A stretch of DNA of 64,000 bases from an uncultured Chloroflexia bacterium. GTDB taxonomy: Bacteria > Chloroflexota > Limnocylindria > QHBO01. How positions within the stretch are numbered: the first letter of the stretch is position 1; the number at the start of each line of letters is the position of its first letter. Position numbers and translations under genes: made by a program. Below the pieces are notes generated by a model. That model was not told the DNA's origin. It worked only from the letters and a program-made list of their open reading frames with translations, and did no database searches. Below are positions 4,181 to 15,474 of this stretch, piece after piece. The stretch spans positions 3,781 through 67,780 of the forward strand of contig CAVRFT010000006.1 of assembly GCA_963720505.1 (NCBI GenBank), written 5' to 3'.

Positions 4181-5668
4181 GCGCTGACGGTCGCCGGTTC
4201 GGCATCCCTGCCGTCCCCGGTGGCTGCGCCCCTGGGCCAGGCCAGCACGAACGAGGCGCGCGGCCGACGCTCCTCCAGGCGAACGGTACCGCCCTGCGCC
4301 TGCATGGCGGCGTTGACCAGGAAGAGGCCCAGGCCCAGCCCTCGGCCGGAGCTGACGCGCTCGTGGAACAGCACATCGGCCACCTCGTCGGGGATGCCCG
4401 GTCCGGCGTCGCGCACGCGCAATAGCGGGGCGTCGCGGCCGTCGATCTCGACGTCAACCGGTGCGTCGGGTTGCGAGTAGCGGTCCGCATTGGTCAGCAG
4501 GTTCGTGATCGCCTGCTCGGTCAGGCCCCGATCGCCCAGCACCAGCGGCTTGCCACGGGCTGCGACTCGCACCTCGCGTTCGCTGCCCTGGGCGCGCAGC
4601 CGCTCGACGCCGGCGTCCACCGCTGCGCGCAGGTCGAAGGGTTCCTGGCTGGCGTCCAGCCGCCCGGCCTCGGCCCGCGAAAACAGTTCCAGCCGCTCGA
4701 GGATCCCGATTGCCGCGTCGACGGATTCCAGCGCCCGCGCCCCATGATCGACGCCGCGACCACGGCTCATGCCCGCGATTGGCAAGCTCCATGCGCGCCT
4801 TGGCCACCGCCAGCGGATTGCGCAGCTCATGCGCCACGAAGCTGGCAAATCGCGAGAGGCGCCGTCGCTCGTCGACTTCCTTGCCAACGTCGCGCAGCAG
4901 CAGGACCGCGCCTCCGTCCGGCAGGGGCGTGCCCTCCACCTCGACAAGCAAATCGCGCCCTGACATCGGCAGGCGCACCAGGACGCGACTGCTCACCGGC
5001 CCCGATCGCGCGCGCAGCTGTGGCCACTCGTCGCGTGGCAGCGGCCTTCCCCCTTCGTCGCGCGGCTCGGCGAGGCGCGCCCACTCGTCCAGCGGCCGGT
5101 CGAAGAAGCTCCGCCCGAAGACCCGCAAGGCGGCGTTGTTGGCGAACGTGCCCATTCCATCGGGCCCGTAGACGATCAGCGGCTCCGGGATCGCCTGCGC
5201 CACCTCCGCCAGCCGCGCGCGCTCTCGGTCGACCTGCTCCAGGGCGTCGCGCACCTGCTGGCGGGCCGCATCGGCCGCCAGCCTGGCCTGGTTGGCGTGT
5301 TCCTCGGCCGCGCTGCTGGCCTGCCGGGCGGCGCGATCCGCCTTCTGCTGCCACTCCGACCGCAGCCCCAGCACGATCACCACCGGCGAGCCGAAGGCGA
5401 AGACCACTAGGCGCACGATGTCCGGCTCGGCCATCGTTTCGCCGGGCAGCGGCAGCGATGCGACCAGCAGGATCACGCCCGCCACGACATAGGCAATGAG
5501 CGCCGGGATGGCTCCCAGGCTCAGGCCGATAAGGGTGATGACCAGCACCACCAGGACGACGTAGGGCGCCGACTCGGCTGTGCTCGACGCCAGCCACAGT
5601 GACAGTGCTGCCGCCGCGCCTCCCGCCAGGGCGCCAAGGACCGCGTTGCGAATGCCCCGCCGCGTCAC
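4177..5668 (-). pseudogene. sensor histidine kinase (membrane N-terminus, PAS-like, HisKA, HATPase_c), frameshifted near 4780
   Basis: ORF 4454..5668 carries the TM segments and H-box FVAHELRNPL. ORF 4177..4947 carries ...FSRAEAGRLD and the ATPase motifs (LLTNADRYS, DAGPGIP, GLGLGL). They join as ...KARMELA|IAGMSRG with one extra base. Confidence 0.8.
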
Positions 5669-5682
5669 CTCAGCGGCGAAGC

Positions 5683-6906
5683 CTAGCGCACGCCCGCGGC
5701 GACAACGTCGGCGCGCAATGGCTTGTCGGCCAGGTCCGCATCCCGCAGCTGGGCGCGGCGGCCGGCCCTCTCCGCCGCCGCCGCGGCGCGCTCGCGCGCA
5801 CGAACCAGCCGGCGACGGGCGGCCGCAATGCGGCGCACCGGGTCGCCGCCGATCCGGCGGCGGTCCAGTGCCTGGGGATGATCACCGCGCGCGAGCGCCG
5901 CGAGCAGCGCGGAGGCGCGATCCAGCTGGCCGGCCTCGGTCAGCAGCTGAACGATGCTGAACCATCGCGCCGGCTCGGTGACCCGCTGGGACGCGACCCG
6001 CTCGACCACCTCCGCGGCTCGCCCGAAGTGACCGGCCCGGCGCAGCGCCATGATCGTGGCGCGCACGTCCGGGATCCCGGGCTCCATGTCGAGCGCCTCC
6101 AGGTAGTTGAGCAGCAGCTCGGCGGCCTCCGCGCGATCCTCCACGCTGCCGCGCCGCACGCGCTGGTCGCGAAACTCGCCGAGCAGCGCCCTCAGCTCGC
6201 GGTCCACCCATCGGCGCTGGCTGCTGTTGGCGGGATAGCGTTCGGCCATCTGGCGCAGGAAGCCGATGCCGCGCAGGTACATGCCGTTGCTGACGTACGC
6301 CGCTCGCAGGTCCGCCTGTACCAGTGTGTCGAACGCGTCTTCCAGCTTGACCAGCCGTTCCAGCGTGCCGATCCAATCCTCGCTGCTGCCCCGATCCCGG
6401 TAGTAGCCGGCCGCGTAGCGCAGCCAGTAGCGCTCGCTGTGGGTGCGCCAGTCCTCGCCGGTGATGTGGTTGGCCACGATCCAGGCGTTCTGGACGCTTG
6501 GGCCTGCCATGAAGACGTCGGCGGGGACGCGGAAGCCGGCCACGTTGCGCCACTGGGGCTGGTGCCAGCGGCTCGGAGGCTGCTCCGCCCGCGGGACTCT
6601 CCGCCGCCGAGCGGGTGCCGGCGTTTCGTCCGCCTCCAGCGGCCAATCCAGTGTCGCCGCCATGCCGCGCTCGAGGTCGTGGTCGTAGTGCAGCCGGCGC
6701 AGCGGATCGCGCAGCTCTCGCCAGGCCCGGTTGAGGACCGCGGTGCGGCGGGTCGCCAGCTGGCTGGCCGTGGCGCGGTCGGGATGGTGGCGCAGCACGG
6801 CGTCGCGGAAGGCGGCGCGCAGCTCGGCGGACGTGGCGGAGGGCTCGGCGCCCAGCACCTCGTAGTAGTCGCGCTCCTCGGTGCGTGCCTCGCGTTCGAC
6901 GGCCAT
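5683..6906 (-). CDS. J-domain (DnaJ-like) protein with a helical-repeat C-terminal region
   Basis: In-frame ATG 6906 inside ORF 5683..7947. Sequence MAVEREARTEERDYYEVLG...LRHHPDR contains the HPD motif. About 300 aa of helical sequence follow. The upstream part of the track ORF is antisense to cphB. Confidence 0.75.
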   Translation of the reverse strand: MAVEREARTEERDYYEVLGAEPSATSAELRAAFRDAVLRHHPDRATASQLATRRTAVLNRAWRELRDPLRRLHYDHDLERGMAATLDWPLEADETPAPARRRRVPRAEQPPSRWHQPQWRNVAGFRVPADVFMAGPSVQNAWIVANHITGEDWRTHSERYWLRYAAGYYRDRGSSEDWIGTLERLVKLEDAFDTLVQADLRAAYVSNGMYLRGIGFLRQMAERYPANSSQRRWVDRELRALLGEFRDQRVRRGSVEDRAEAAELLLNYLEALDMEPGIPDVRATIMALRRAGHFGRAAEVVERVASQRVTEPARWFSIVQLLTEAGQLDRASALLAALARGDHPQALDRRRIGGDPVRRIAAARRRLVRARERAAAAAERAGRRAQLRDADLADKPLRADVVAAGVR

Positions 6907-6912
6907 CCGGCG

Positions 6913-6918
6913 AGGATA
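6913..6918 (-). promoter_or_regulatory. candidate -10 box (TATCCT on minus strand) 6 nt upstream of the J-domain ATG
   Basis: Minus strand reads gtcgTATCCTcgccggATG. The intergenic region shared with cphB is only 66 nt and has no Shine-Dalgarno sequence. Confidence 0.35.
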
Positions 6919-6956
6919 CGACGCCCGCGCCCTCGCCGTCCGGGTGGGCGCGACGG

Positions 6957-6962
6957 TAGACT
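6957..6962 (+). promoter_or_regulatory. candidate -10 box (GGTAGACT) 10 nt upstream of the cphB ATG; near-leaderless
   Basis: Sequence cgacGGTAGACTgcggcgcgacATG. The same GTAGA(A/C)T motif recurs before three other first-in-operon starts. Confidence 0.4.
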
Positions 6963-6972
6963 GCGGCGCGAC

Positions 6973-7971
6973 ATGCCTCCAACCGAGCGGACCGGCGGGC
7001 CACGCGCCGGGCACCTGCTGATCATCGGCGGCGCCGAGGACAAGCTGCGACAGCGCCAGATCCTGTCGCGCTTCGCCTCCCTGGCCGGCGGCGCTGACGC
7101 TCGCGTGGCGGTCATCTCGACGGCATCCTCGCTGGGCGACGAGGCGACCGAGCTGTACCAGTCGCTCTTCCGTTCGCTGGGCATTCCCGAGGTACACGGC
7201 CTGCGGCCGATGACGCGGGACGACGCCAACCTGCCGGCGGCAATCGAGGCGGTGCGCGATGCGACGGGCATCTTCATGACCGGTGGCAACCAGCTGCGCC
7301 TGTCGAGCGTGATCGGCGGCACCGGGCTGGGTCGGGCGATCATCGATCGCCATCGGCACGGCGTGATCGTGGCCGGCACCAGTGCCGGCGCATCGGCCAT
7401 CAGCACCCACATGGTCAGCTTCGGCACCAGCGGATCGACCCCCAAGCAGCGGATGACCCAGATGAGCGCCGGGCTGGGCCTGCTGCCGGGCGTGATCATC
7501 GACCAGCACTTCGAGCAGCGGAACCGCATCGGCCGGCTCCTGGCGCTGGTCGCCCAGTCCCCCGCCCTGCTGGGCATGGGCATCGACGAGGACACTGCCG
7601 CCCTCGTCTCGCCGGCGGGGATGATGGAGGTGCTGGGCAAGGGATCGGTCACCATCCTGGACCCGGCCAAGCTGCAGACCGATGCCTACGAGGTGAAGCG
7701 CCACAAGCCGATCATGGTCAGCGGCGTGATCCTGCACTCGCTGCCATCGGGCTATCGGTTCGACCTTCGCAAGCGGCGCCTGCGGGCGCCCCTGCGCCCG
7801 GTGTCGGCAACCGATCGTGAGCTGGCCCGCATCGCCAGCGCCTCGAACGTCACCCGTCGCCTGATCCGCCGTATCGCAGCCGAGGGCGCCGACGACACGG
7901 CCCCCGAGCGAAGCGCCCGGCGCCGTCGCGCGCTGAGCGCACGTCATCTCGACGAAGAAGCGAGCGAATGA
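6973..7971 (+). CDS. cphB: cyanophycinase (peptidase S51)
   Basis: C-terminal 332 aa of track ORF 5599..7971, from ATG 6973. Motifs LLIIGGAEDK, GIFMTGGNQLRL, VAGTSAGASA (GTSAG nucleophile) and IDQHFEQRNRIGRL. Confidence 0.9.
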   Translation: MPPTERTGGPRAGHLLIIGGAEDKLRQRQILSRFASLAGGADARVAVISTASSLGDEATELYQSLFRSLGIPEVHGLRPMTRDDANLPAAIEAVRDATGIFMTGGNQLRLSSVIGGTGLGRAIIDRHRHGVIVAGTSAGASAISTHMVSFGTSGSTPKQRMTQMSAGLGLLPGVIIDQHFEQRNRIGRLLALVAQSPALLGMGIDEDTAALVSPAGMMEVLGKGSVTILDPAKLQTDAYEVKRHKPIMVSGVILHSLPSGYRFDLRKRRLRAPLRPVSATDRELARIASASNVTRRLIRRIAAEGADDTAPERSARRRRALSARHLDEEASE

Positions 7972-10796
7972 GCACCGCGCGCGCCAAGCGTCCCCTCGCC
8001 TCGGGCTCGAAGGCGAAGATGGAGCGCACCGCGGCCAGCCGCAAGAAGCTCAAGCCCGTCGGCGAGCTGAAGATCCTCGAGACGCGCGTCTACCGCGGGC
8101 CGAACTACTGGAGCTACGACCCGGCCATCAAGCTGGTCGTCGACCTGGGCGTGCTGGAGCAGTTCCCGTCGAGCACCATCCCCGGCTTCGTCGAGGGGCT
8201 GCTGGACATGCTGCCCGAGGTCGGCAGCCACTCGTGCGGCACTGGGCGCGCCGGCGGGTTCGCTGGGCGCCTGCGCGAAGGCACCTGGCTGGGCCACGTG
8301 GCCGAGCACATCGCGCTGCAGCTGCAGCGCGAGGCGGGCACCGAGGTCGGCCGCGGCAAGACGCGCGGCACCGGCGAGCCGGGGCAGTACCACGTCGTCT
8401 ATTCGTTCGGCGAAGAGAGCGTGGGCCTGGCGGCCGGGCGCCTGGCGGTGCGGCTGGTCAATCACCTGGTCACCGCCGAGTCCGACTTCGACTTCCGGGT
8501 GGAGTTCGAGAAGCTGGTCCTGCTGGCGGAGCGTGCTGCCTTCGGCCCATCGACCCAGGCCATCCTGGACGAGGCCGCGTTGCGCGACATCCCGTCCATC
8601 CGCCTGAACGAGCAGTCCCTGGTCCAGCTGGGGCACGGCGTCCACCAGCAACGCATCCGCGCCACGATGACCAGCCAGACCAGCTCGCTGGGCGTCGACA
8701 TCGCGTCCGACAAGAAGCTGACCAACAAGCTGCTGGCAGCGACCGGGGTGCCGGTGCCGCGCTCGGAGGTTGTCCGCAACGAGCAGGAGGCGTCCGCGGC
8801 GGCCGCCACCATCGGCTACCCGGTGGCGATCAAGCCGCTGGATGGCAACCACGGACGGGGCGTCATGCTCAACCTGGCCGATGACGCCGCCGTGCGGGCC
8901 GGCTACGCCGCCGCGCGGGCCGAGTCGCGCCACGGCGGGGTGGTGGTCGAGTCCTACCTGACCGGCAATGACTACCGCTGCCTGGTGATCGGCGGGGTGC
9001 TGCGGGCGGTCGCGCAGCGCGTGCCGGCGCACGTGGTCGGCGACGGCGAGCACAGCCTGACCGAGCTGACGGAGATCACCAACGCCGACCCGCGGCGCGG
9101 CATCGGGCACGAGAAGGTGCTGACCCGAATCAAGGTCGACGATGAATCGACCACGTACGCCCGCGAGCAGGGCTTCGAGATGAGCGACGTGCCGCCGCGC
9201 GGCGTGCGGGTCTTCCTCAAGCGCACCGGCAACATGAGCACCGGCGGCATCAGCATCGACCGAACCGAGGAGGCGCACCCGGACAACGTCGAGATCGCGG
9301 AGCTGGCGGCGCGGGTGGTGGGCCTCGATATCGCCGGCATCGACTTCATCTGCCCGGACATCAGCGTGCCGGTGCGCGAGACGGGCGGGGGCATCGTGGA
9401 GGTCAACGCCGCACCGGGCTTTCGGATGCACACCCACCCAACCGAGGGGGAAGCGCAGTACGTGGCCAAGCCGGTGATCGATGCGCTCTTCCCGCCTGGC
9501 AGCCCGTCGCGCATCCCGATCGTGGCCGTGACCGGCAGCAACGGCAAGACGACCACCGCCCGGATGATCTCGCACATCATGAAGGGGATGGGCCGCAAGG
9601 TCGGGATGACCTCGACCGATGGCATCTTCGTCGACGGCCGCCTGGTGCGGAAGGGCGACTCGTCTGGCCCCCGATCGGCCTCCACCGTGCTCCAGAATCC
9701 GACCGTCGACTTCGCGGTATTCGAGGTGGCGCGCGGCGGCATCCTGCGCGAAGGGCTGGGCTACCAGCGCAACGACGTGGCCGTGGTGCTGAACGTGACC
9801 GGCGACCACCTGGGCCTGGCCGGCATCACCTCCATCCGGCAGCTGGCCAACGTCAAGCAGGTCGTGGTCGAGGCGGTGCCGCGCGACGGGACGGCGGTCC
9901 TCAACGCCGACGACCCGCTGGTGGCCGGCATGGGCCGCCATTGCTCCGGATCGGTCATCTACTTCAGCACCGATCCGGAACACGAGATCATCAAGCGCCA
10001 GGCCTCACGCGGGCGCCGCGCCGTGACGCTGGAGCCGGGGCGCAACGGCGAGATGATCGTGCTGCGCCAGGGCCGCAAGTCGATGCCGCTGGTCTGGACC
10101 CACCTGCTCCCGTCGACCTTCGAGGGCCGCGCGCGGATGAACGTCCAGAACGCGCTGGCCGCGACCGGCGCCGCCTGGGCCGCGGGCGCGCACCTGCACG
10201 ACATCCGGCAGGGCCTGCGGACCTTCACCACCAGCTATTTCATGGCGCCGGGCCGGCTGAACATGTTCGAGCTGGACGGCTACCGGGTGATCGTCGACTA
10301 CGCCCACAACCCACCGGCCGTCCGCGCCCTGGGCGAGTTCGTGGACCAGCTGGCGGAGCCATCGAGCACCGGCCGGCGGCCGCTGGTCACCGGCCGCCGC
10401 ATCGGCGTCATGGCCACCGCCGGCGATCGGCGCGACGAGGACATCGTGGAGCTGGGCCGCACCGCGGCTCGCTACTTCGACACGCTCGTCCTGCGGGAGG
10501 ATGCGAACAATCGTGGCCGGCCCCGCGGCGACACTGCCGCCCTGATCGAGAAGGGCGTGCGCGCCGAGATGGCGAACGGTGGTCGCACGAACTCAGTCGA
10601 GATCGTGCTGGACGAGCTCGAGGCGACCCGACGCGCCCTGGACATGGGGAGCGACGGCGACATCATCGTGGTCTGCGTCGACCACGCCAACGACGTGTGG
10701 AAGGAGCTGCAGCGCCGCCAGCACGGCGGCTCGAGCGGCGCCATCTCGGCGGTCACCACGCTGGGCGCCGACGACGGCATCGAGATCGAGGCCTAG
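7968..10796 (+). CDS. cphA: cyanophycin synthetase (N domain, ATP-grasp G domain, Mur-ligase-like M domain)
   Basis: 942-aa intact ORF with an ATGA overlap with cphB. N domain LKILETRVYRGPNYWSYDPAIK. ATP-grasp region (KPLDGNHGRGV...). Mur-ligase P-loop VAVTGSNGKTTT and C-terminal ligase domain. An internal ATG at 8019 is an alternative start. Confidence 0.9.
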   Translation: MSTARAKRPLASGSKAKMERTAASRKKLKPVGELKILETRVYRGPNYWSYDPAIKLVVDLGVLEQFPSSTIPGFVEGLLDMLPEVGSHSCGTGRAGGFAGRLREGTWLGHVAEHIALQLQREAGTEVGRGKTRGTGEPGQYHVVYSFGEESVGLAAGRLAVRLVNHLVTAESDFDFRVEFEKLVLLAERAAFGPSTQAILDEAALRDIPSIRLNEQSLVQLGHGVHQQRIRATMTSQTSSLGVDIASDKKLTNKLLAATGVPVPRSEVVRNEQEASAAAATIGYPVAIKPLDGNHGRGVMLNLADDAAVRAGYAAARAESRHGGVVVESYLTGNDYRCLVIGGVLRAVAQRVPAHVVGDGEHSLTELTEITNADPRRGIGHEKVLTRIKVDDESTTYAREQGFEMSDVPPRGVRVFLKRTGNMSTGGISIDRTEEAHPDNVEIAELAARVVGLDIAGIDFICPDISVPVRETGGGIVEVNAAPGFRMHTHPTEGEAQYVAKPVIDALFPPGSPSRIPIVAVTGSNGKTTTARMISHIMKGMGRKVGMTSTDGIFVDGRLVRKGDSSGPRSASTVLQNPTVDFAVFEVARGGILREGLGYQRNDVAVVLNVTGDHLGLAGITSIRQLANVKQVVVEAVPRDGTAVLNADDPLVAGMGRHCSGSVIYFSTDPEHEIIKRQASRGRRAVTLEPGRNGEMIVLRQGRKSMPLVWTHLLPSTFEGRARMNVQNALAATGAAWAAGAHLHDIRQGLRTFTTSYFMAPGRLNMFELDGYRVIVDYAHNPPAVRALGEFVDQLAEPSSTGRRPLVTGRRIGVMATAGDRRDEDIVELGRTAARYFDTLVLREDANNRGRPRGDTAALIEKGVRAEMANGGRTNSVEIVLDELEATRRALDMGSDGDIIVVCVDHANDVWKELQRRQHGGSSGAISAVTTLGADDGIEIEA

Positions 10797-12413
10797 TCCG
10801 CCGACAGCAGCTCGCGTAGCCGGCGCAACGGCACCGGCTGGTAGCCGGCCGACGTGAGCCAGGCGGCGATCTCGGCGCGCTCGACGTGGGTCATGACCGC
10901 GACCACGTCCCCCTTCCTTGCCCGCTTCTCCAGTGCCTGGAGGGCGGCCAGCTCGCTCGGGAGTGCTTCGACCTTGCCGGTGAAGCCGCCCTCCTTCACG
11001 CCGCCGCGCAGGATCCGGTTCATCCCCCCCAGGTCGCGCCCGCGCAGGTAGTGGCGCTTCTCGCAGATGACGACGTCGTCGGCGCCCGCACCGGCCAGGC
11101 GGCCCAGGTTGCGGAGGATCTCGTCGGTCCGGTCGCCCGCCGTACCCAGCGCCAGCCGCACCTTGCCGCGGCGGCCGCCGCCCGGGCGCGTCGTCAGCTG
11201 ACGTGAGACGTCCAACAGACCCTGCAGACCGGCCTCGTTGTGAGCGAAGTCGATCAGCACCAGCCGGCCGCGTCGCTCGTACAGGTTGAGGCGTCCCGGG
11301 TTGGCGCCGGTGTCAAGCTCGAAGGTGCGCAGCCCGGCCGCGATCCGCTTGGCCGTGAAGCCGAGGGCATCCGCCGCGGCCGCCGCGGCCAGCGCATTGG
11401 CCACGTTGTAGGTGGAGAGGCCGCCGAAGGTGACCGGCAGCTCGGCGACCGGTGCGATCCGCCGCGTGCGGCCACCTTCCCGCAGCAGGGTCACCATCCC
11501 GTCGACAATGATCGCCGCCCGTCCGCCGCGCGCCAGCGCCTCGCGCACGCCCGGGCTGTCGGGTTCCAGGCTGAACGCGTACCAGCCGGCACGCGTCTGG
11601 CGGCGCATGGCCCACACCCGCGGATCGTCCGCGTTCAGCACCGCCCAGCCACCGCGGCGGGTGATCCGCACGATGGTGGCCTTCACCTCGGCCAGCTCGT
11701 CAAGCGGTGTCGATGCCCTGCAGGCCAAGATGGTCGGCCGAGACGTTGGTGACCACCGCCACGTCATTGGCGGCATAGCCGATGCCGCGCAGCAGGATCC
11801 CGCCGCTCGCCGTCTCCAGCACGGCCAGCTGCAGGCCCGGCTCCGCCAGAACGCGGCCGGCACCGCCGAAACCGGTCCAGTCGCCGGGCTCGACCAGCTT
11901 GTCCCGGACGTAGATGCCGTCCGAGTTGGTCATGCCCACCCGCCGACCGGCCTCGCGCGCGATATGCGCAATCAGGCGCGTGGTGGTGCTCTTGCCGTTG
12001 GTGCCGGTGACCGCCACCACCGGAACGTGCGGCGTCGGCAGGTGGGGGCGTGGGCCGGGGGCGATTGCGCGCAGCGCACGAAGCTCGCGGCGCTCGCTGG
12101 TGATGCCCAGCGCCACGCGTGACGCCGCGGTCCCAATCGCCTGGGCGACGGCCCGACGGTGCCATTGGAAGGCGATCGCCGCCCGCCGGCGGTCGTGCGA
12201 GTCGCGGGTGGTGACCCGGGGTGGGTTCAGGTCCAGGGCGGCGTACAGGTGCCGAACGACCTGGCCGGCGGCGGTGGCCGCCTCAGCGGCGACGCCCGGC
12301 TCATCGGCTCCGAACTCGAGCTTGACGGCCGGTCGGGTGAAGAACCGGTTGGGGCCGTCCAGCACGCGGAGCTCGAGCAGCTCGACCCCGTCGGCGCGGG
12401 CGGCCTGCGGCAT
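10793..12413 (-). pseudogene. CphA paralogue with N domain plus Mur-ligase (M) domain only, no ATP-grasp; frameshifted near 11705
   Basis: ORFs 11700..12431 and 10793..11863. VELLELRVLDGPNRFFTRPAVKLEF parallels the CphA N domain and runs directly into VVAVTGTNGKSTTTRLIAHI...NVSADHLGLQGIDT|LDELAEVKA...NADDP. About 540 aa. Start taken at ATG 12413 (the track uses GTG 12431). Confidence 0.75.
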
Positions 12414-12420
12414 GGCCGGC

Positions 12421-12428
12421 AGTATACT
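12421..12428. promoter_or_regulatory. palindromic AGTATACT, a candidate shared bidirectional -10 element for two divergent leaderless genes
   Basis: Only 23 nt separate ATG 12413 (minus) and ATG 12437 (plus). TATACT reads on both strands, 7 and 8 nt from the respective ATGs. Confidence 0.45.
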
Positions 12429-12436
12429 CACGCGCC

Positions 12437-13604
12437 ATGCCGCCCCCGCTCAGCCTGCACGAGGCCGTCCAGGCACGCCTGCCGCGGTACCTGGCGGAGC
12501 TGGAAGCGCTCGTCAACATCGATTGCGGGTCGTACACACCGGCCGGCGTGAACCGGGTGGCCGACCTCGTCGCGGCCTCGCTGGCCGAGCTTGGCGCCAC
12601 GCGTCGAGCGCATCCCTCACGCCCCAGCAGCCGGTGAGCCGCAGCTGGGCGACCTGGTCATCGGCCACCTGCCCGGCGACGGGCCGCGTCGCCTGCTGAT
12701 CGGCCACATGGACACCGTCTTCGATGAGGGAACGGCGGCCGAGCGCTCGTACACCGTGGACGGCGACCGCGCCATGGGGCCTGGCGCAAGCGACATGAAG
12801 GGCGGCCTGCTGTCCGGCCTGCACGCCCTCGCAGCGCTGCACGAGGCGGACGAACATCCGGCCATCACCTTCGTGGCCAACCCGGACGAGGAGATCGGCT
12901 CCATCTTCAGCGGCGCGCACATCCGTCAGCTGGCGCCCGAGCACGATGTCAGCCTGGTGCTGGAATGCGCCCGCGCCAGCGGCGCCATCGTCAGCGCACG
13001 CAAGGGCATCGCCGACCTGGAGCTCATCTTCAGGGGCCGCGCCGCGCATGCGGGCGTCGAGCCGGAGAAGGGCCGCTCCGCCATCCTGGCCGCGGCCCGG
13101 CAGGTGGTGGCACTCCATGAGCTCAACGGTCGCTGGCCCGACGTGACGCTGAACGCCGGCGTGATCGCAGGGGGCACCCGGCCGAACGTGGTGCCGGCCG
13201 ACTGCCGGCTGCAGCTGGATCTCCGGGCGGCGACCGCCGACGCATTCGACCACGCCCGCGCCGAGGTGCAGCGCCTGGCCGCGGACAGTCCCATCGCGGG
13301 CGTGACATGCGAGGTCCGCGAGCTGGCCAGCCATCGGCCGATGGAGAAGACGCCCGCCATCGCTCGCCTGGCCGAGCTGGCCATCGGCATTGCCGGCGAG
13401 CTGGGCTTCGAGCTGACGGACGCCGCCACCGGCGGCGCCAGCGACGCCAACACCACCGCCGGGCTGGGCGTGCCGACGCTGGACGGCCTCGGCCCGATCG
13501 GCGGCGACGACCACTCGGCGGATGAATGGCTGGACCTGGCCAGCGTGGTGCCGCGCACAACCCTGCTGGCGACGCTGATCGCCCGTGTCGGGGAGGCACT
13601 GTAG
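12437..13604 (+). pseudogene. M20 family metallopeptidase (carboxypeptidase G2 / ArgE-DapE-like), frameshifted near 12600
   Basis: ORF 12437..12637 (LVNIDCGSYTPAGVNRV) joins ORF 12591..13604 (LLIGHMDTVF, GPGASDMKGG, NPDEEIGS, HAG.EPEKGRSA, GGDDHSADEW). Confidence 0.8.
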
Positions 13605-13616: not shown

Positions 13617-14058
13617 GTGACTGACGACTTCCGCCACCGCACGCGCGTCGAAGTGCGATTTCGTGACATCGACGCCTTCGGACACGTGAACAACGCCGTC
13701 GTCTCCAGCTACCTCGAGCTCGCCCGGATCCGGTACCTGGTCGATGTCCTGCAGGTGGAGCCGATCGGCGTCATGCCGCTGATCCTGGCCCACATCTCGA
13801 TCGACTACCGCTCGCCGATCTTCTTCACCGACACCGTGGAGATTGGCTCGCGCGTCGACTGGCTGGGCACCACCAGCATCGGCATGTCGCACGAGATGAC
13901 CGCCGCTGCGGATGGCCGCGAGCTGGCCCGATCCTCATCGGTCCTGGTCACCTACGACTACGAGCAGAGCCGGCCGATGCCGGTGCCCGACGACTGGCGC
14001 CGGGCCGCTGGCGGCGTACGAAGGCCACGCCCTGGAGCGGCCGATGGCCACCGCATGA
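13617..14058 (+). pseudogene. 4HBT/YbgC-like acyl-CoA thioesterase; 3' end shifted near 14007
   Basis: VRFRDIDAFGHVNNAVVSSYLELAR hot-dog fold signature. As sequenced it reads in frame into lpd. Removing one base gives ...DDWRRALAAYEGHALERPMATA* with its TGA overlapping the lpd ATG (ATGA at 14055). Confidence 0.65.
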
Positions 14059-15474
14059 GCGAGACCATGCAGTTCGACCTGCTGATCCTGGGTGGCGGCA
14101 TGAGCTACGTGGGCGCCATCCGGGCTGCGCAGCTCGGCCTGAAGGTGGGCCTCATCGAACGCGACAAGCTGGGCGGCACCTGCCTGAACCGCGGCTGCAT
14201 CCCGTCGAAGGCGCTGCTCGAGACGGCCGACCTGCTCCATCGAGTTCACGAGCAGGGCGGCGAGTTCGGCCTGGCCGGACATGAGGGCATCAGCCTTGAC
14301 TACCCGGCCCTGGGTGCGCGGCGCGACGCCGTGGTCGACAAGCACGTCAAGGGCGTCGAGTTCCTGCTGAAGAAGAACGGCGTGACCGTCATCAAGCGGG
14401 CACGGCACACTCATCGGGCCGACCAGCGTCCGCGTTTCGGGCGGCGAGTCGGGTGACGTGGACGCCAGCGGCACCGACCTCATCCTGGCCACCGGGTCGG
14501 CACCCCGGTCGCTCCCCGGCCTGGACATCGACGGCCATCGCATCATCACCTCCGATGAGGCGCTGCAACGCGCCGACGTCCCGCGCAGCGCGACGATCGT
14601 GGGCGCCGGGGCGGTCGGCGTGGAGTGGGCCAGCATGTACCGCGACTTCGGGGCGGAGGTGCACCTCGTCGAGTTCCTGGACCGGCTGGTGCCGCTGGAG
14701 GATGCCGACGTCAGCAAGGAGCTGGGGCGCGTCTTCCGCAAGCGCGACATCACCGCGCATCTGTCCTCGACCATCGACACCGAGAGCATCCAGCCCACCG
14801 ACGGCGGCCTGCGCTTCACCGTCGCCGCGCGCGACGGCGACAAGCGCACGGACGTGGAGTCGGACCTGATCCTGGTGGCGGTCGGACGGCGGCCGCTGAC
14901 CGAGGGCATCGGCCTGGAGGCCATTCCCGGCGTTGAGCTGGACCGCGGCTACGTCAAGGTCGACGGCTGGATGCGGACCGGCGCCGAGCACCTGTACGCC
15001 ATCGGGGACATCGTGCCGGGCTTCGCGCTCGCCCACGTCGCGGCCCACGAGGCGGTGGTTGCGGCCGAGATCATCGCCGGCCACGACCCGGCGCCGGTGG
15101 ACATGAGCCTCATGCCGCGCGCCACCTTCTGCCGCCCGCAGATCAGCAGCGTGGGCATGACCGAGGCGGAGGCGCGCGAGGCCGGCCACGAGGTCAAGAC
15201 CGGCTCGTTCCCGTTCCGCGCGCTGGGCAAGGCGACGATCGTGGGCGAGGTGGACGGGTTCGCCAAGATCGTGGCCGATGCGGGGACCGGCCTGATCCTG
15301 GGCGCCCACATCATCGGCCCGCACGCCGGCGACCTGCTGGCCGAGCCGACGCTGGCACGCCTCGTGGAGGGGACCGCCGGTGAGATCGCGATGAGCGTCC
15401 ACGCCCACCCGACGCTGACCGAGGCGCTGGCCGAGGCGGCGATGGCAGTGGACGGCGCACCGATCCACATCTGA
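14055..15474 (+). pseudogene. lpdA: dihydrolipoyl dehydrogenase (E3), frameshifted near 14397
   Basis: FDLLILGGG...GGTCLNRGCIPSKALL (redox disulfide) in frame 0. After ...VTVIK|GHGTLIGP the remainder (ORF 14458..15474) has IVGAGAVGVE, YAIGD and HAHPTLTEAL. Confidence 0.85.

Follow-up and report, generated by a model that had tools for sequence, protein, structure and literature searches.

Cyanophycin is a nitrogen-storage polymer whose synthesis is thought to need CphA1 alone; in cyanobacteria, the variant CphA2 recycles dipeptides. CphA2 polymerises β-Asp-Arg dipeptides with an active G domain and carries a truncated, vestigial and inactive M domain. In CphA1, according to PMC9262961 and PMC9427784, the N domain and the M core hold a cyanophycin analogue between them. 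A hairpin loop carrying the motif RGPNYWS is reported to contact the M domain (PMC9262961), and the definition of the Cx19HxxEH site and the roles of the N-domain motifs are taken from the same paper. Residues K499, T500, T522, E558, R731 and H748 of TeCphA1 have been shown to bind ATP/Mg (PMC9427784). The portions of the cyanophycin literature searched, including excerpts of PMC9262961, PMC9427784, PMC10206079, PMC9974463 and PMC11915815, yielded no description of a protein made of N and M domains only.

The window, a 64,000-nucleotide stretch of DNA from an uncultured Chloroflexia bacterium, encodes such a protein within a cyanophycin locus. The stop codon of cphB (6973-7971, plus strand; cyanophycinase, peptidase S51; TIGR02069, 258 bits) overlaps the start of cphA1 (7968-10796, plus strand), whose 942-aa product contains N, G and M domains, scores 1149 bits against TIGR02068 and has Pfam matches for N, ATP-grasp and Mur_ligase_M/C. 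The Cx19HxxEH motif of this CphA1 is intact and its M domain is complete, with the catalytic and lid residues all kept. Convergent with cphA1 lies an N+M-only CphA paralogue, here called the ligase (10793-12413, or 12431 from a GTG; minus strand; two frames, delimited by open reading frames and homologues), and the two stop codons overlap in the palindrome CTAG at 10793-10796. The locus is flanked by an M20-family metallohydrolase gene (12437-13604, plus strand; 388 aa after a one-base repair), divergent from the ligase, and by a gene for a J-domain and TPR protein (5683-6906, minus strand), divergent from cphB. All five genes named in the first-pass annotation are found here, and each of the peptide strings it quoted occurs in the translations.

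The convergent gene had been described as encoding about 540 aa. This length fits the homologues, but in the window the gene does not form a single open frame and needs a one-base repair. It is split into an N-part (11700-12431) and a C-part (10793-11863), and at the break the minus strand reads ...GAC ACC G CTT GAC... where GIDTLDEL is expected. Once a single base near 11704/11705 is removed, the product has 545 aa if it starts at the upstream in-frame GTG (12431), or 539 aa from a conserved ATG at 12413; M7-P8 in the 545-aa numbering are invariant across the ligase family. More than 100 intact homologues with 67-92% identity, all of ~540 aa, match the repaired ligase in length and at the junction. 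Comparison with the closest relative (locus L003) places an uncompensated 1-nt insertion at the ligase break, on the minus strand, and the 12 kb compared hold five such insertions, each in a different conserved gene. The M20 gene is also frameshifted, by an extra base at ~12601. Because five single-base insertions within 12 kb each break another conserved gene, the alignments suggest that the ligase frameshift is probably an assembly error. The window ligase also has S209 where every homologue, and CphA1 too, has Arg (R209S); overall it departs from the consensus at 1 of 191 near-invariant positions, which is within the range of intact members. If the frameshift and R209S are not sequencing errors, the window copy could be inactive.

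The M domain, with a Mur-ligase core and lid, begins at about residue 135, straight after the N domain, and profile matches extend over residues ~135-514 in the 545-aa numbering (10889-12029, minus strand). A PDB profile search aligns it with Synechocystis CphA1 (SuCphA1) at an E-value of 6e-93 and ~45-50% identity, compared with 1e-19 for MurE. Against TIGR02068 the ligase scores 380.5 bits over model positions 478-848 only, and the cut-off of 850 is not reached; MurE models give ~110, with 104.7 bits for TIGR01085, whose cut-off of 257 is not reached either. Both window fragments and the intact homologues match Pfam Mur_ligase_M (PF08245) and Mur_ligase_C (PF02875). The domain carries the P-loop TGTNGKST together with T168, E206, D233-H234, R380 and H397, which, like K147, are conserved in the ligase family and in CphA1. 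K147, S/T148, T168, E206, R380 and H397 correspond, in that order, to the six ATP/Mg-binding residues of TeCphA1. No Pfam match to ATP-grasp was obtained for the window ligase or four intact homologues, and a weak ~35-residue vestige of the start of the G domain is kept only in some distant family members. As it has no recognisable ATP-grasp G domain, the ligase would be unable to extend the Asp backbone.

The N domain has the topology β-β-α-β-β-α-α and includes a conserved ELLELRVLDGPNRFF hairpin. It is ~35 residues shorter than in CphA1 and is without the Cx19HxxEH metallopeptidase site. Pfam PF18921 gave no match to the N-terminal 137 aa or to four intact homologues up to E = 10. The first-pass annotation had likened the N terminus to the CphA N domain, and profile and fold comparisons point to relatedness: hhalign against the CphA N domain gave a probability of 68% (E 4.8e-5) with the close family, rising to 96% (E 4.8e-9) with the broad clade, and for an AlphaFold2 model of the N part alone (pLDDT 88) the best 14 PDB matches in Foldseek were exclusively N domains of CphA1 and CphA2, with TMq of 0.56-0.65 to CphA1. 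No Mur ligase was among the significant matches of this N-only model. With the whole model, Foldseek aligned CphA1 over the M domain only, and alignments to MurE over 430-490 columns suggested that the N part might be a Mur domain 1; this assignment was rejected since the N-only model matches CphA only. The best-conserved common motif is RGPNYWS in CphA1 and DGPNRFF in the ligase family, whose N domain is strongly conserved with many invariant Arg residues. The resemblance is more than chance, and hhalign, AlphaFold2 and Foldseek together identify residues ~10-125 in the 539-aa numbering (12039-12386, minus strand) as a minimal CphA N domain. As the N-domain loop is reported to contact the M domain in CphA1 and the cyanophycin analogue is bound between the two, the retained N and M domains can be viewed as a structural and functional unit.

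The distribution and synteny survey that had been proposed shows that the ligase is not a local oddity but a large family linked to cphA1-cphB across phyla. At E ≤ 1e-30 there are 1271 clusters, CphA1 included, and ~90 of the best 150 are of N+M size. Among the 87 contexts long enough to judge, the gene lies within 2.5 kb of cphA1 in 86: in 72/72 from Limnocylindria (72 of 80 loci) and in 14 of 15 others. It is mostly adjacent to cphA1, often in the order cphB-cphA1-ligase. In Limnocylindria, the ligase is followed by convergent cphA1 and cphB in every locus of sufficient length (72/72). Six of seven distant contexts are also near cphA1-cphB (Nocardioides, Myxococcales, Thermomicrobiales, Acidobacteriota and two metagenome contigs). 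The distance is 2.3 kb in Nocardioides, and in several contexts there is a gap of 23 bp or an overlap of start and stop codons. The Myxococcales operon context with cphB also includes an amidohydrolase. For one family member, on the contig P0265 that also carries spoVS and RNase Y genes, no cph gene lies within 7 kb. In eight further metagenome loci the ligase either follows cphA1 immediately or is convergent to it; the scan that yielded them used the group A alignment, which contains generic Mur motifs, and returned mostly CphA1 and MurE loci, about 8 being informative. In total, at least five bacterial phyla have the ligase next to cyanophycin genes. In a rough tree the family tends to separate from the M domains of CphA1 (41/60 bootstraps); the window encodes no further Mur ligase that could serve as an outgroup for rooting it. 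Databases name the homologues 'Mur ligase family protein', and cultured Nocardioides strains carry the gene.

With CphA1 (TIGR02068; PDB 7LG5, 7LGQ, 7WAE, 7LGN) the ligase has in common the N fold, an M domain with the ATP/Mg and core residues, and the M-contacting hairpin loop. However, CphA1 has a G domain, a longer N domain with the Cx19HxxEH Zn-peptidase site, and the lid residues R822, E844 and D845. CphA2 (PDB 7TA5, 8FXH/8FXI) is, like the ligase, a shortened form within the CphA lineage, and its N domain, which is related, likewise does not contain the peptidase motif. In CphA2, G is kept and M is cut down, whereas the ligase keeps a complete M domain and lid and is without G. Sequence profiles, homologues and the predicted structure thus bear out the claim of an N+M protein without the ~300-aa ATP-grasp module, truncated in the opposite sense to CphA2. 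MurE and other Mur ligases offer an analogy, with an acceptor-binding N-terminal domain, a P-loop ATPase core, a C-terminal lid and acyl-phosphate chemistry that the ligase may share. They differ in having Mur domain 1 at the N terminus, where the ligase has a CphA N domain, and the ligase is found in cyanophycin rather than cell-wall clusters. Tandem full-length cphA pairs, seen in 8 metagenome loci, likewise place a second CphA-lineage gene beside cphA1, although these partners contain N, G and M domains, while the ligase has no G and tends to group apart.

The ligase departs from the CphA1 M domain in the lid. R822, E844 and D845 (82% conserved), which are conserved in CphA1, are not kept in the ligase family, which instead has a one-residue insertion, conserved Tyr (76-97%) and a gained R215; the RGR motif is common to both. 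The DNPR-type motif of MurE is not present in the ligase. The lid differences may reflect a changed amino-acid pocket, the position being equated with that of the MurE DNPR motif by a gapless alignment. The Arg site of CphA1 is not visualised in the portions of the literature searched. The lid sequence indicates a pocket different from that of CphA1, which speaks for another amino acid or another context rather than simple re-arginylation.

The analysis establishes the N+M architecture, the retention of the catalytic residues and, in several phyla, the linkage to cphA1-cphB. Our leading reading, to which we give an even chance, is that the ligase is an active stand-alone Mur-type enzyme of the CphA lineage that acts in trans on the cyanophycin chain and probably does not duplicate CphA1 arginylation. 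The polymer as acceptor, the action in trans and the altered specificity are all three inferred. The N domain would replace Mur-ligase domain 1 and hold the acceptor chain, and the N and M domains together would make the side-chain-ligation site, as in CphA1. Cyanophycin or a chain of the (β-Asp-Arg)n-Asp type, coming from the neighbouring CphA1, would be bound between the N domain and the core of the M domain. This core and the lid would use ATP to activate a carboxylate, to which an amine would then be added: the Asp carboxylate would be phosphorylated and an amino acid or amine then ligated. A different incoming substrate or a different chain state may be used. Because the lid pocket differs and the gene is kept beside a complete CphA1, the reaction is probably no simple copy of CphA1 arginylation. 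That an N+M protein rescues a defective M domain of its partner is ruled out for the window, where CphA1 keeps its catalytic and lid residues. The more specific proposal that the ligase attaches something other than canonical Arg to the polymer, for instance a different amino acid, a capping amine or a residue elsewhere along the chain, is one that we advance tentatively.

If the ligase instead performed the CphA1 M-domain reaction, it could act as a helper that adds L-Arg to the C-terminal Asp of growing chains and boosts rate or completeness when chains leave CphA1. The common catalytic residues and RGR motif would fit this role, as would the tight, possibly translational, coupling of the gene to cphA1 in several phyla, and heterodimer experiments cited in PMC9262961 show that CphA1 active sites on separate protomers are able to work together on a single chain. 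We nevertheless consider it rather unlikely, as the three CphA1 lid residues are lost in favour of the conserved Tyr and the retention of a redundant activity beside a complete CphA1 in many lineages is hard to explain. Action on small substrates, namely free Asp or short peptides, for making β-Asp-Arg or primers or for recycling CphB dipeptides, seems less probable still. The reduced N domain without a peptidase insert is compatible with it, and the operon context with cphB, plus the Myxococcales amidohydrolase, fits dipeptide turnover or priming, but the strong conservation of the N domain and its invariant Arg residues are a better fit to polymer binding. The primer-generating Cx19HxxEH site is moreover intact in the window CphA1, which leaves no obvious need for a further priming enzyme.

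The split frame and R209S, at a position where homologues and CphA1 have Arg, would also be expected if the window copy were a decaying pseudogene, a broken and functionless remnant of a duplicated cphA. This we regard as improbable: the pattern of uncompensated insertions points to sequence errors, the departure from near-invariant positions is no greater than in intact members, and over 100 intact orthologues exist with fixed synteny. The database name and the restriction of Pfam matches to Mur_ligase_M and Mur_ligase_C might suggest an ordinary cell-wall Mur ligase, a MurE or MurF paralogue that lies near cphA by chance, but we give this hardly any credence given the far closer relation to CphA1 M domains than to MurE, the CphA-like N-terminal domain in place of Mur domain 1, and the conserved linkage to cphA1-cphB across phyla.

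Returning to the trans-acting ligase, a third CphA-lineage protein beside cphA1-cphB in at least five phyla, with intact catalytic residues, would imply a so far unassigned step in cyanophycin metabolism, which may serve to complete side chains, to add an alternative one, to cap or to prime. If the non-Arg proposal is correct, natural cyanophycin in Chloroflexota, Actinomycetota, Myxococcota and Acidobacteriota would not match the textbook polymer in composition or in the control of its length, and the N+M protein would be a widespread part of cyanophycin metabolism, unrecognised so far and with a chemistry of its own. In evolutionary terms, the ligase shows that N and M can be separated from the rest of the synthetase as a module. 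With cultured Nocardioides carriers, established CphA1 assays and available synthetic segments of cyanophycin, the ligase is directly testable. An M-type ligase that stands alone and has another pocket would also be useful for producing tailored derivatives of cyanophycin, a goal actively pursued in biotechnology.

The first-pass annotation had counted the M20 and J-domain genes as part of the neighbourhood. Both are present and invariant within Limnocylindria. By contrast, Pfam gene tables show neither in the seven contexts looked up outside Limnocylindria, and an M20 query found no M20 gene in six same-strand metagenome contexts (the convergent loci L098 and L128 being left out). As conservation is limited to Limnocylindria, the two genes are not a core association and were ruled out as core partners. 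Between the start codons of the ligase and M20 lies a palindromic -10-like element, AGTATACT (12421-12428), which stands as TATACT-N7-ATG before the ligase and as TATACT-N8-ATG before M20. In 68/68 Limnocylindria loci examined, the N7-ATG is preceded by TATACT or CATACT, and the spacing implies that the ligase and M20 may be expressed from leaderless divergent transcripts.

The region (G+C ~71%) contains the whole neighbourhood described in the first-pass annotation, and each gene was located by its coordinates. A J-domain/TPR gene (5683-6906, minus strand) diverges from the cyanophycinase gene cphB (6973-7971, plus strand; TIGR02069, 258 bits), which is followed by a full-length cphA1 of 942 aa (7968-10796, plus strand; TIGR02068, 1149 bits) with the Pfam domains Cyanophycin_syn, ATP-grasp, Mur_ligase_M and Mur_ligase_C. 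Convergent with cphA1 lies the gene for the CphA paralogue, here called the ligase (10793-12413/12431, minus strand, in two frames), and divergent from the latter is an M20 hydrolase gene (12437-13604, plus strand). cphA1 and the ligase gene end in overlapping stop codons, within the palindrome CTAG (10793-10796). Residue numbers refer to the repaired protein read from the upstream GTG at 12431.

Residues 135-514 of the ligase align with positions 478-848 of the TIGR02068 model at 380 bits, whereas MurE models score about 110 bits. A profile of the ligase family matches the M domains of CphA1 from Synechocystis, Trichodesmium, Tatumella and Acinetobacter with E-values of 6e-93 to 4e-78, and MurE with 1e-19. 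These scores bear out the earlier proposal of a Mur-ligase domain closely parallel to the CphA M domain. The ATP- and Mg-binding residues reported for TeCphA1 (P-loop K499/T500, T522 and E558; lid R731 and H748; PMC9427784) are all kept in the ligase (K147, T168, E206, R380 and H397), as are D233-H234, and the catalytic residues are intact. The full-length AlphaFold model (pLDDT 84, pTM 0.85) has CphA1 as its leading structural matches.

The Pfam model PF18921 finds no match in the first 135 residues of the ligase, even at E = 10. In profile-profile comparison, residues 10-109 of the ligase-family N domain align with residues 28-162 of a set of 121 CphA1 N domains (E 4.8e-5, Prob 68%), and a profile from the wider, far more diverse N+M clade aligns with the CphA1 N profile across 152 columns (Prob 96%, E 4.8e-9); between the two N+M profiles the match has Prob 99.2%. 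Modelled by AlphaFold on their own, the N-terminal 131 residues (pLDDT 88) have the topology beta-beta-alpha-beta-beta-alpha-alpha. The top 14 PDB matches of this model are exclusively chains of CphA1 or CphA2, with TMq of 0.49-0.65 (mostly 0.56-0.65) and probability of 0.98-1.0, and matches beyond these have probabilities below 0.5. Mur ligase domain 1 was ruled out as the identity of this part of the protein, since none occurs among the PDB matches. Both comparisons agree with the first reading of the N-terminus as a mirror of the CphA N domain. No ATP-grasp segment was detected in the ligase by Pfam searches of the window fragments and of intact homologues, as had been claimed for this module.

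In the alignment, the N domain of the ligase is shorter by about 35 CphA1 residues, among them the Cx19HxxEH metallopeptidase site, which is reported to make primers in CphA1 (PMC9262961) and is intact in the CphA1 of the window (C-19 residues-HVAEH). The best-conserved N-domain motif common to both proteins is ILETRVYRGPNYWS in CphA1 and ELLELRVLDGPNRFF in the ligase. The hydrophobic loop of the ILETRVYRGPNYWS hairpin is reported as an M-domain contact in CphA1 (PMC9262961), where a cyanophycin analogue is described between the N domain and the M core (PMC9427784). The ligase thus keeps the two domains from which the side-chain-ligation site is built. It would bind the cyanophycin chain at the M site as CphA1 does, and may carry out ATP-dependent ligation in trans.

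More than 100 intact homologues were found in a search of 5.8 billion proteins. They originate from Candidatus Limnocylindria (Chloroflexota), are 531-569 aa long except for a single outlier of 644 aa (P0018), share 67-92% identity with the repaired ligase over 97-100% of its length, and are labelled merely 'Mur ligase family protein' or 'cyanophycin synthetase'. Among 1.84 billion cluster representatives, searched exhaustively with HMMER, 1271 matched at E<=1e-30; the top 150 include about 90 proteins of 500-660 aa and about 25 full-length CphA1. Family members occur in Clostridia, Actinomycetota (Nocardioides, Microlunatus, Antricoccus), Myxococcales, Acidobacteriota, Thermomicrobiales and Limnocylindria, none of them with a specific protein name. 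In an unrooted and rough neighbour-joining tree of M domains, N+M-size proteins separate from CphA1, a split with moderate support (41 of 60 bootstrap replicates). Proteins of N+M architecture form a genuine gene family under constraint. In one sub-group, whose N-terminal part is 170-180 aa long, a faint remnant of about the first 35 residues of the G domain persists at a consistent position (consensus G.PFLWDDD.VS.G.G), which hints, tentatively, that the family arose from a CphA1-like ancestor through loss of G. A few further short proteins, among them P0321 (616 aa), P0363 (625 aa) and P0390 (657 aa), have a canonical N domain that strongly resembles that of CphA1 (E 2e-52 to 4e-26), with the M domain almost directly after it, and are nested among CphA1 in the tree; they could reflect separate losses of the G domain, or genes that are mis-called or fragmentary.

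No curated model names the ligase; the best NCBIfam match lies below its cut-off and the N domain is missed by Pfam. Full-text searches and reading of recent cyanophycin papers on bioinformatics and structure, in a coverage that takes in few subscription journals, turned up no N+M-only protein. The domain composition is the opposite of that of CphA2, while both proteins are of the CphA lineage. An earlier mention of such a protein is possible.

Scanning a single genome for each species yielded 565 matching stretches encoding relatives. The best 80 of these, which we examined, are all Limnocylindria-type, and 72 of the 80 reach cphA1. Every long-enough locus among these has the gene order of the window: thioesterase and M20 genes in one direction, the ligase, convergent cphA1 and cphB, and the divergent J-domain gene. 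As these loci are mutually related, distant family members provide the stronger evidence for linkage. The ligase gene lies 2.3 kb from a convergent cphA1-cphB pair in Nocardioides sp. JQ2195 (CP050902, inside 1,928,771-1,946,456) and is convergent in Thermomicrobiales, as in the window. In Myxococcales the order is amidohydrolase-cphB-cphA1-ligase on a single strand with a 23-bp gap, and in Acidobacteriota it is cphB-cphA1-ligase with the ligase starting at the cphA1 stop. Two metagenome contigs carry cphB-cphA1-ligase, six more metagenome loci have the ligase immediately downstream of cphA1, and two more have it convergent with cphA1. The ligase is physically linked to cphA1-cphB in at least five phyla. 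On one contig carrying spoVS and RNase Y, no cph genes lie within 7 kb of the family member, and many cphA1 loci are without an N+M gene. The M20 and J-domain genes, annotated initially as completing the neighbourhood, do so in Limnocylindria loci, but both are absent from the seven looked-up contexts outside this group, and the M20 gene also from six metagenome contexts. Eight metagenome loci (L100, L103, L105, L112, L113, L116, L120 and L121) contain tandem adjacent full-length CphA1-type genes, an alternative arrangement that also places two genes of the CphA lineage together, and no N+M gene was seen within their flanks.

In the window, the ligase is split. One frame (11700-12431) encodes residues 1-243 and another (10793-11863) the remainder, with the junction ...GGC ATC GAC ACC G CTT GAC GAG.... 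Removing one base at ~11704/11705 restores GIDTLDELAEVK and a ligase of 545 aa; translation from the family's conserved start, an ATG at 12413, gives 539 aa, and its Met-Pro is invariant across the family. Compared with its closest relative (L003, a Limnocylindria locus that is 89.5% identical in nucleotides over 11.5 kb), the window carries five uncompensated single-base insertions (6945, 11704, 12601, 14007 and 14397), each disrupting a different conserved gene, the M20 gene among them, a pattern that looks like systematic sequencing or assembly error. Near-invariant family positions are altered in the window ligase at 1 of 191 (R209S), which is within the range of intact members. Codon 209 (~11805-11807) is AGC (Ser) inside the LETARGG loop, at a position that is Arg in 120/120 close homologues, in all wider-clade members and in all CphA1; the change may be either a further sequence error or one that inactivates the window copy. 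In view of the five insertions, the intact homologues and the single altered position, the frameshift is most simply read as an assembly error. If it were real, the window copy would have become a pseudogene very recently, in a family that is constrained elsewhere, and we consider a pseudogene, in this window alone, very improbable. The genes broken by the insertions are the ligase, M20 and a thioesterase/dihydrolipoamide-dehydrogenase-like region. The extra base makes or lengthens a CG/GC step at all four sites inspected (11704, 12601, 14007 and 14397), and the insertion at 6945 resembles a G-run. A PAS/HisKA sensor kinase ORF (4454-5668, minus strand) degenerates to low complexity beyond the HisKA start, and a thioesterase ORF (13617-14456, plus strand) gives way to an N-terminus of Pyr_redox_2 type (dihydrolipoamide dehydrogenase-like); these, too, have the appearance of frame errors.

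When 67 N+M representatives are set against 22 CphA1 M domains, nearly all conserved M-domain positions prove common to both, and the exceptions cluster in the lid. CphA1 has G-D-R-R(82%)-D where the N+M clade has G-D-R-[T/S/P]-D. Before RGR, the CphA1 motif K-E(82%)-D(82%)-x-D/N-L-R-G-R is replaced by the one-residue-longer K/R-E-[K/T/L/M]-x-x-Y(76-97%)-L-R-G-R, and the clade has an additional Arg, R215 (86-97%), after the ETARGG loop. The MurE motif TDDNPR binds the incoming diaminopimelate, and its DD would correspond by position to E844-D845 of CphA1, in a gapless alignment. Should this correspondence be right, the N+M clade would have a changed pocket for the amino acid to be added. With a complete CphA1 encoded alongside and a differing lid, the reaction is probably other than a plain duplicate of arginylation. 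The same two points weigh against a helper Arg ligase, a reading we hold to be unlikely but worth keeping in mind; a priming or dipeptide ligase is less probable again. The three-part layout is common to Mur ligases, but the CphA N domain stands where these have domain 1, and an ordinary Mur ligase is effectively excluded.

The palindrome AGTATACT (12421-12428) separates the start codons of two divergent genes, the ligase (ATG at 12413) and M20 (ATG at 12437). It reads as a -10 hexamer both ways, at distances of 7 and 8 nt from the respective ATGs. All 68 Limnocylindria loci examined have TATACT or CATACT and then N7-ATG, with varying flanks and in a genome of 71% G+C. This conservation suggests that the two divergent transcripts are leaderless and co-regulated from one common element in Limnocylindria. 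The closest NCBIfam models of the M20 hydrolase, both below cut-off, are PRK07338 'hydrolase' and PRK06133 glutamate carboxypeptidase. In Limnocylindria its gene always stands head-to-head with that of the ligase, a pairing not seen in other phyla. As iadA, iaaA and cphZ were not seen in the locus, the hydrolase could be a candidate beta-Asp-Arg dipeptidase of Limnocylindria. The J-domain/TPR gene divergent from cphB, present in every long-enough Limnocylindria locus, encodes a putative dedicated co-chaperone beside the locus for this granule-forming polymer.
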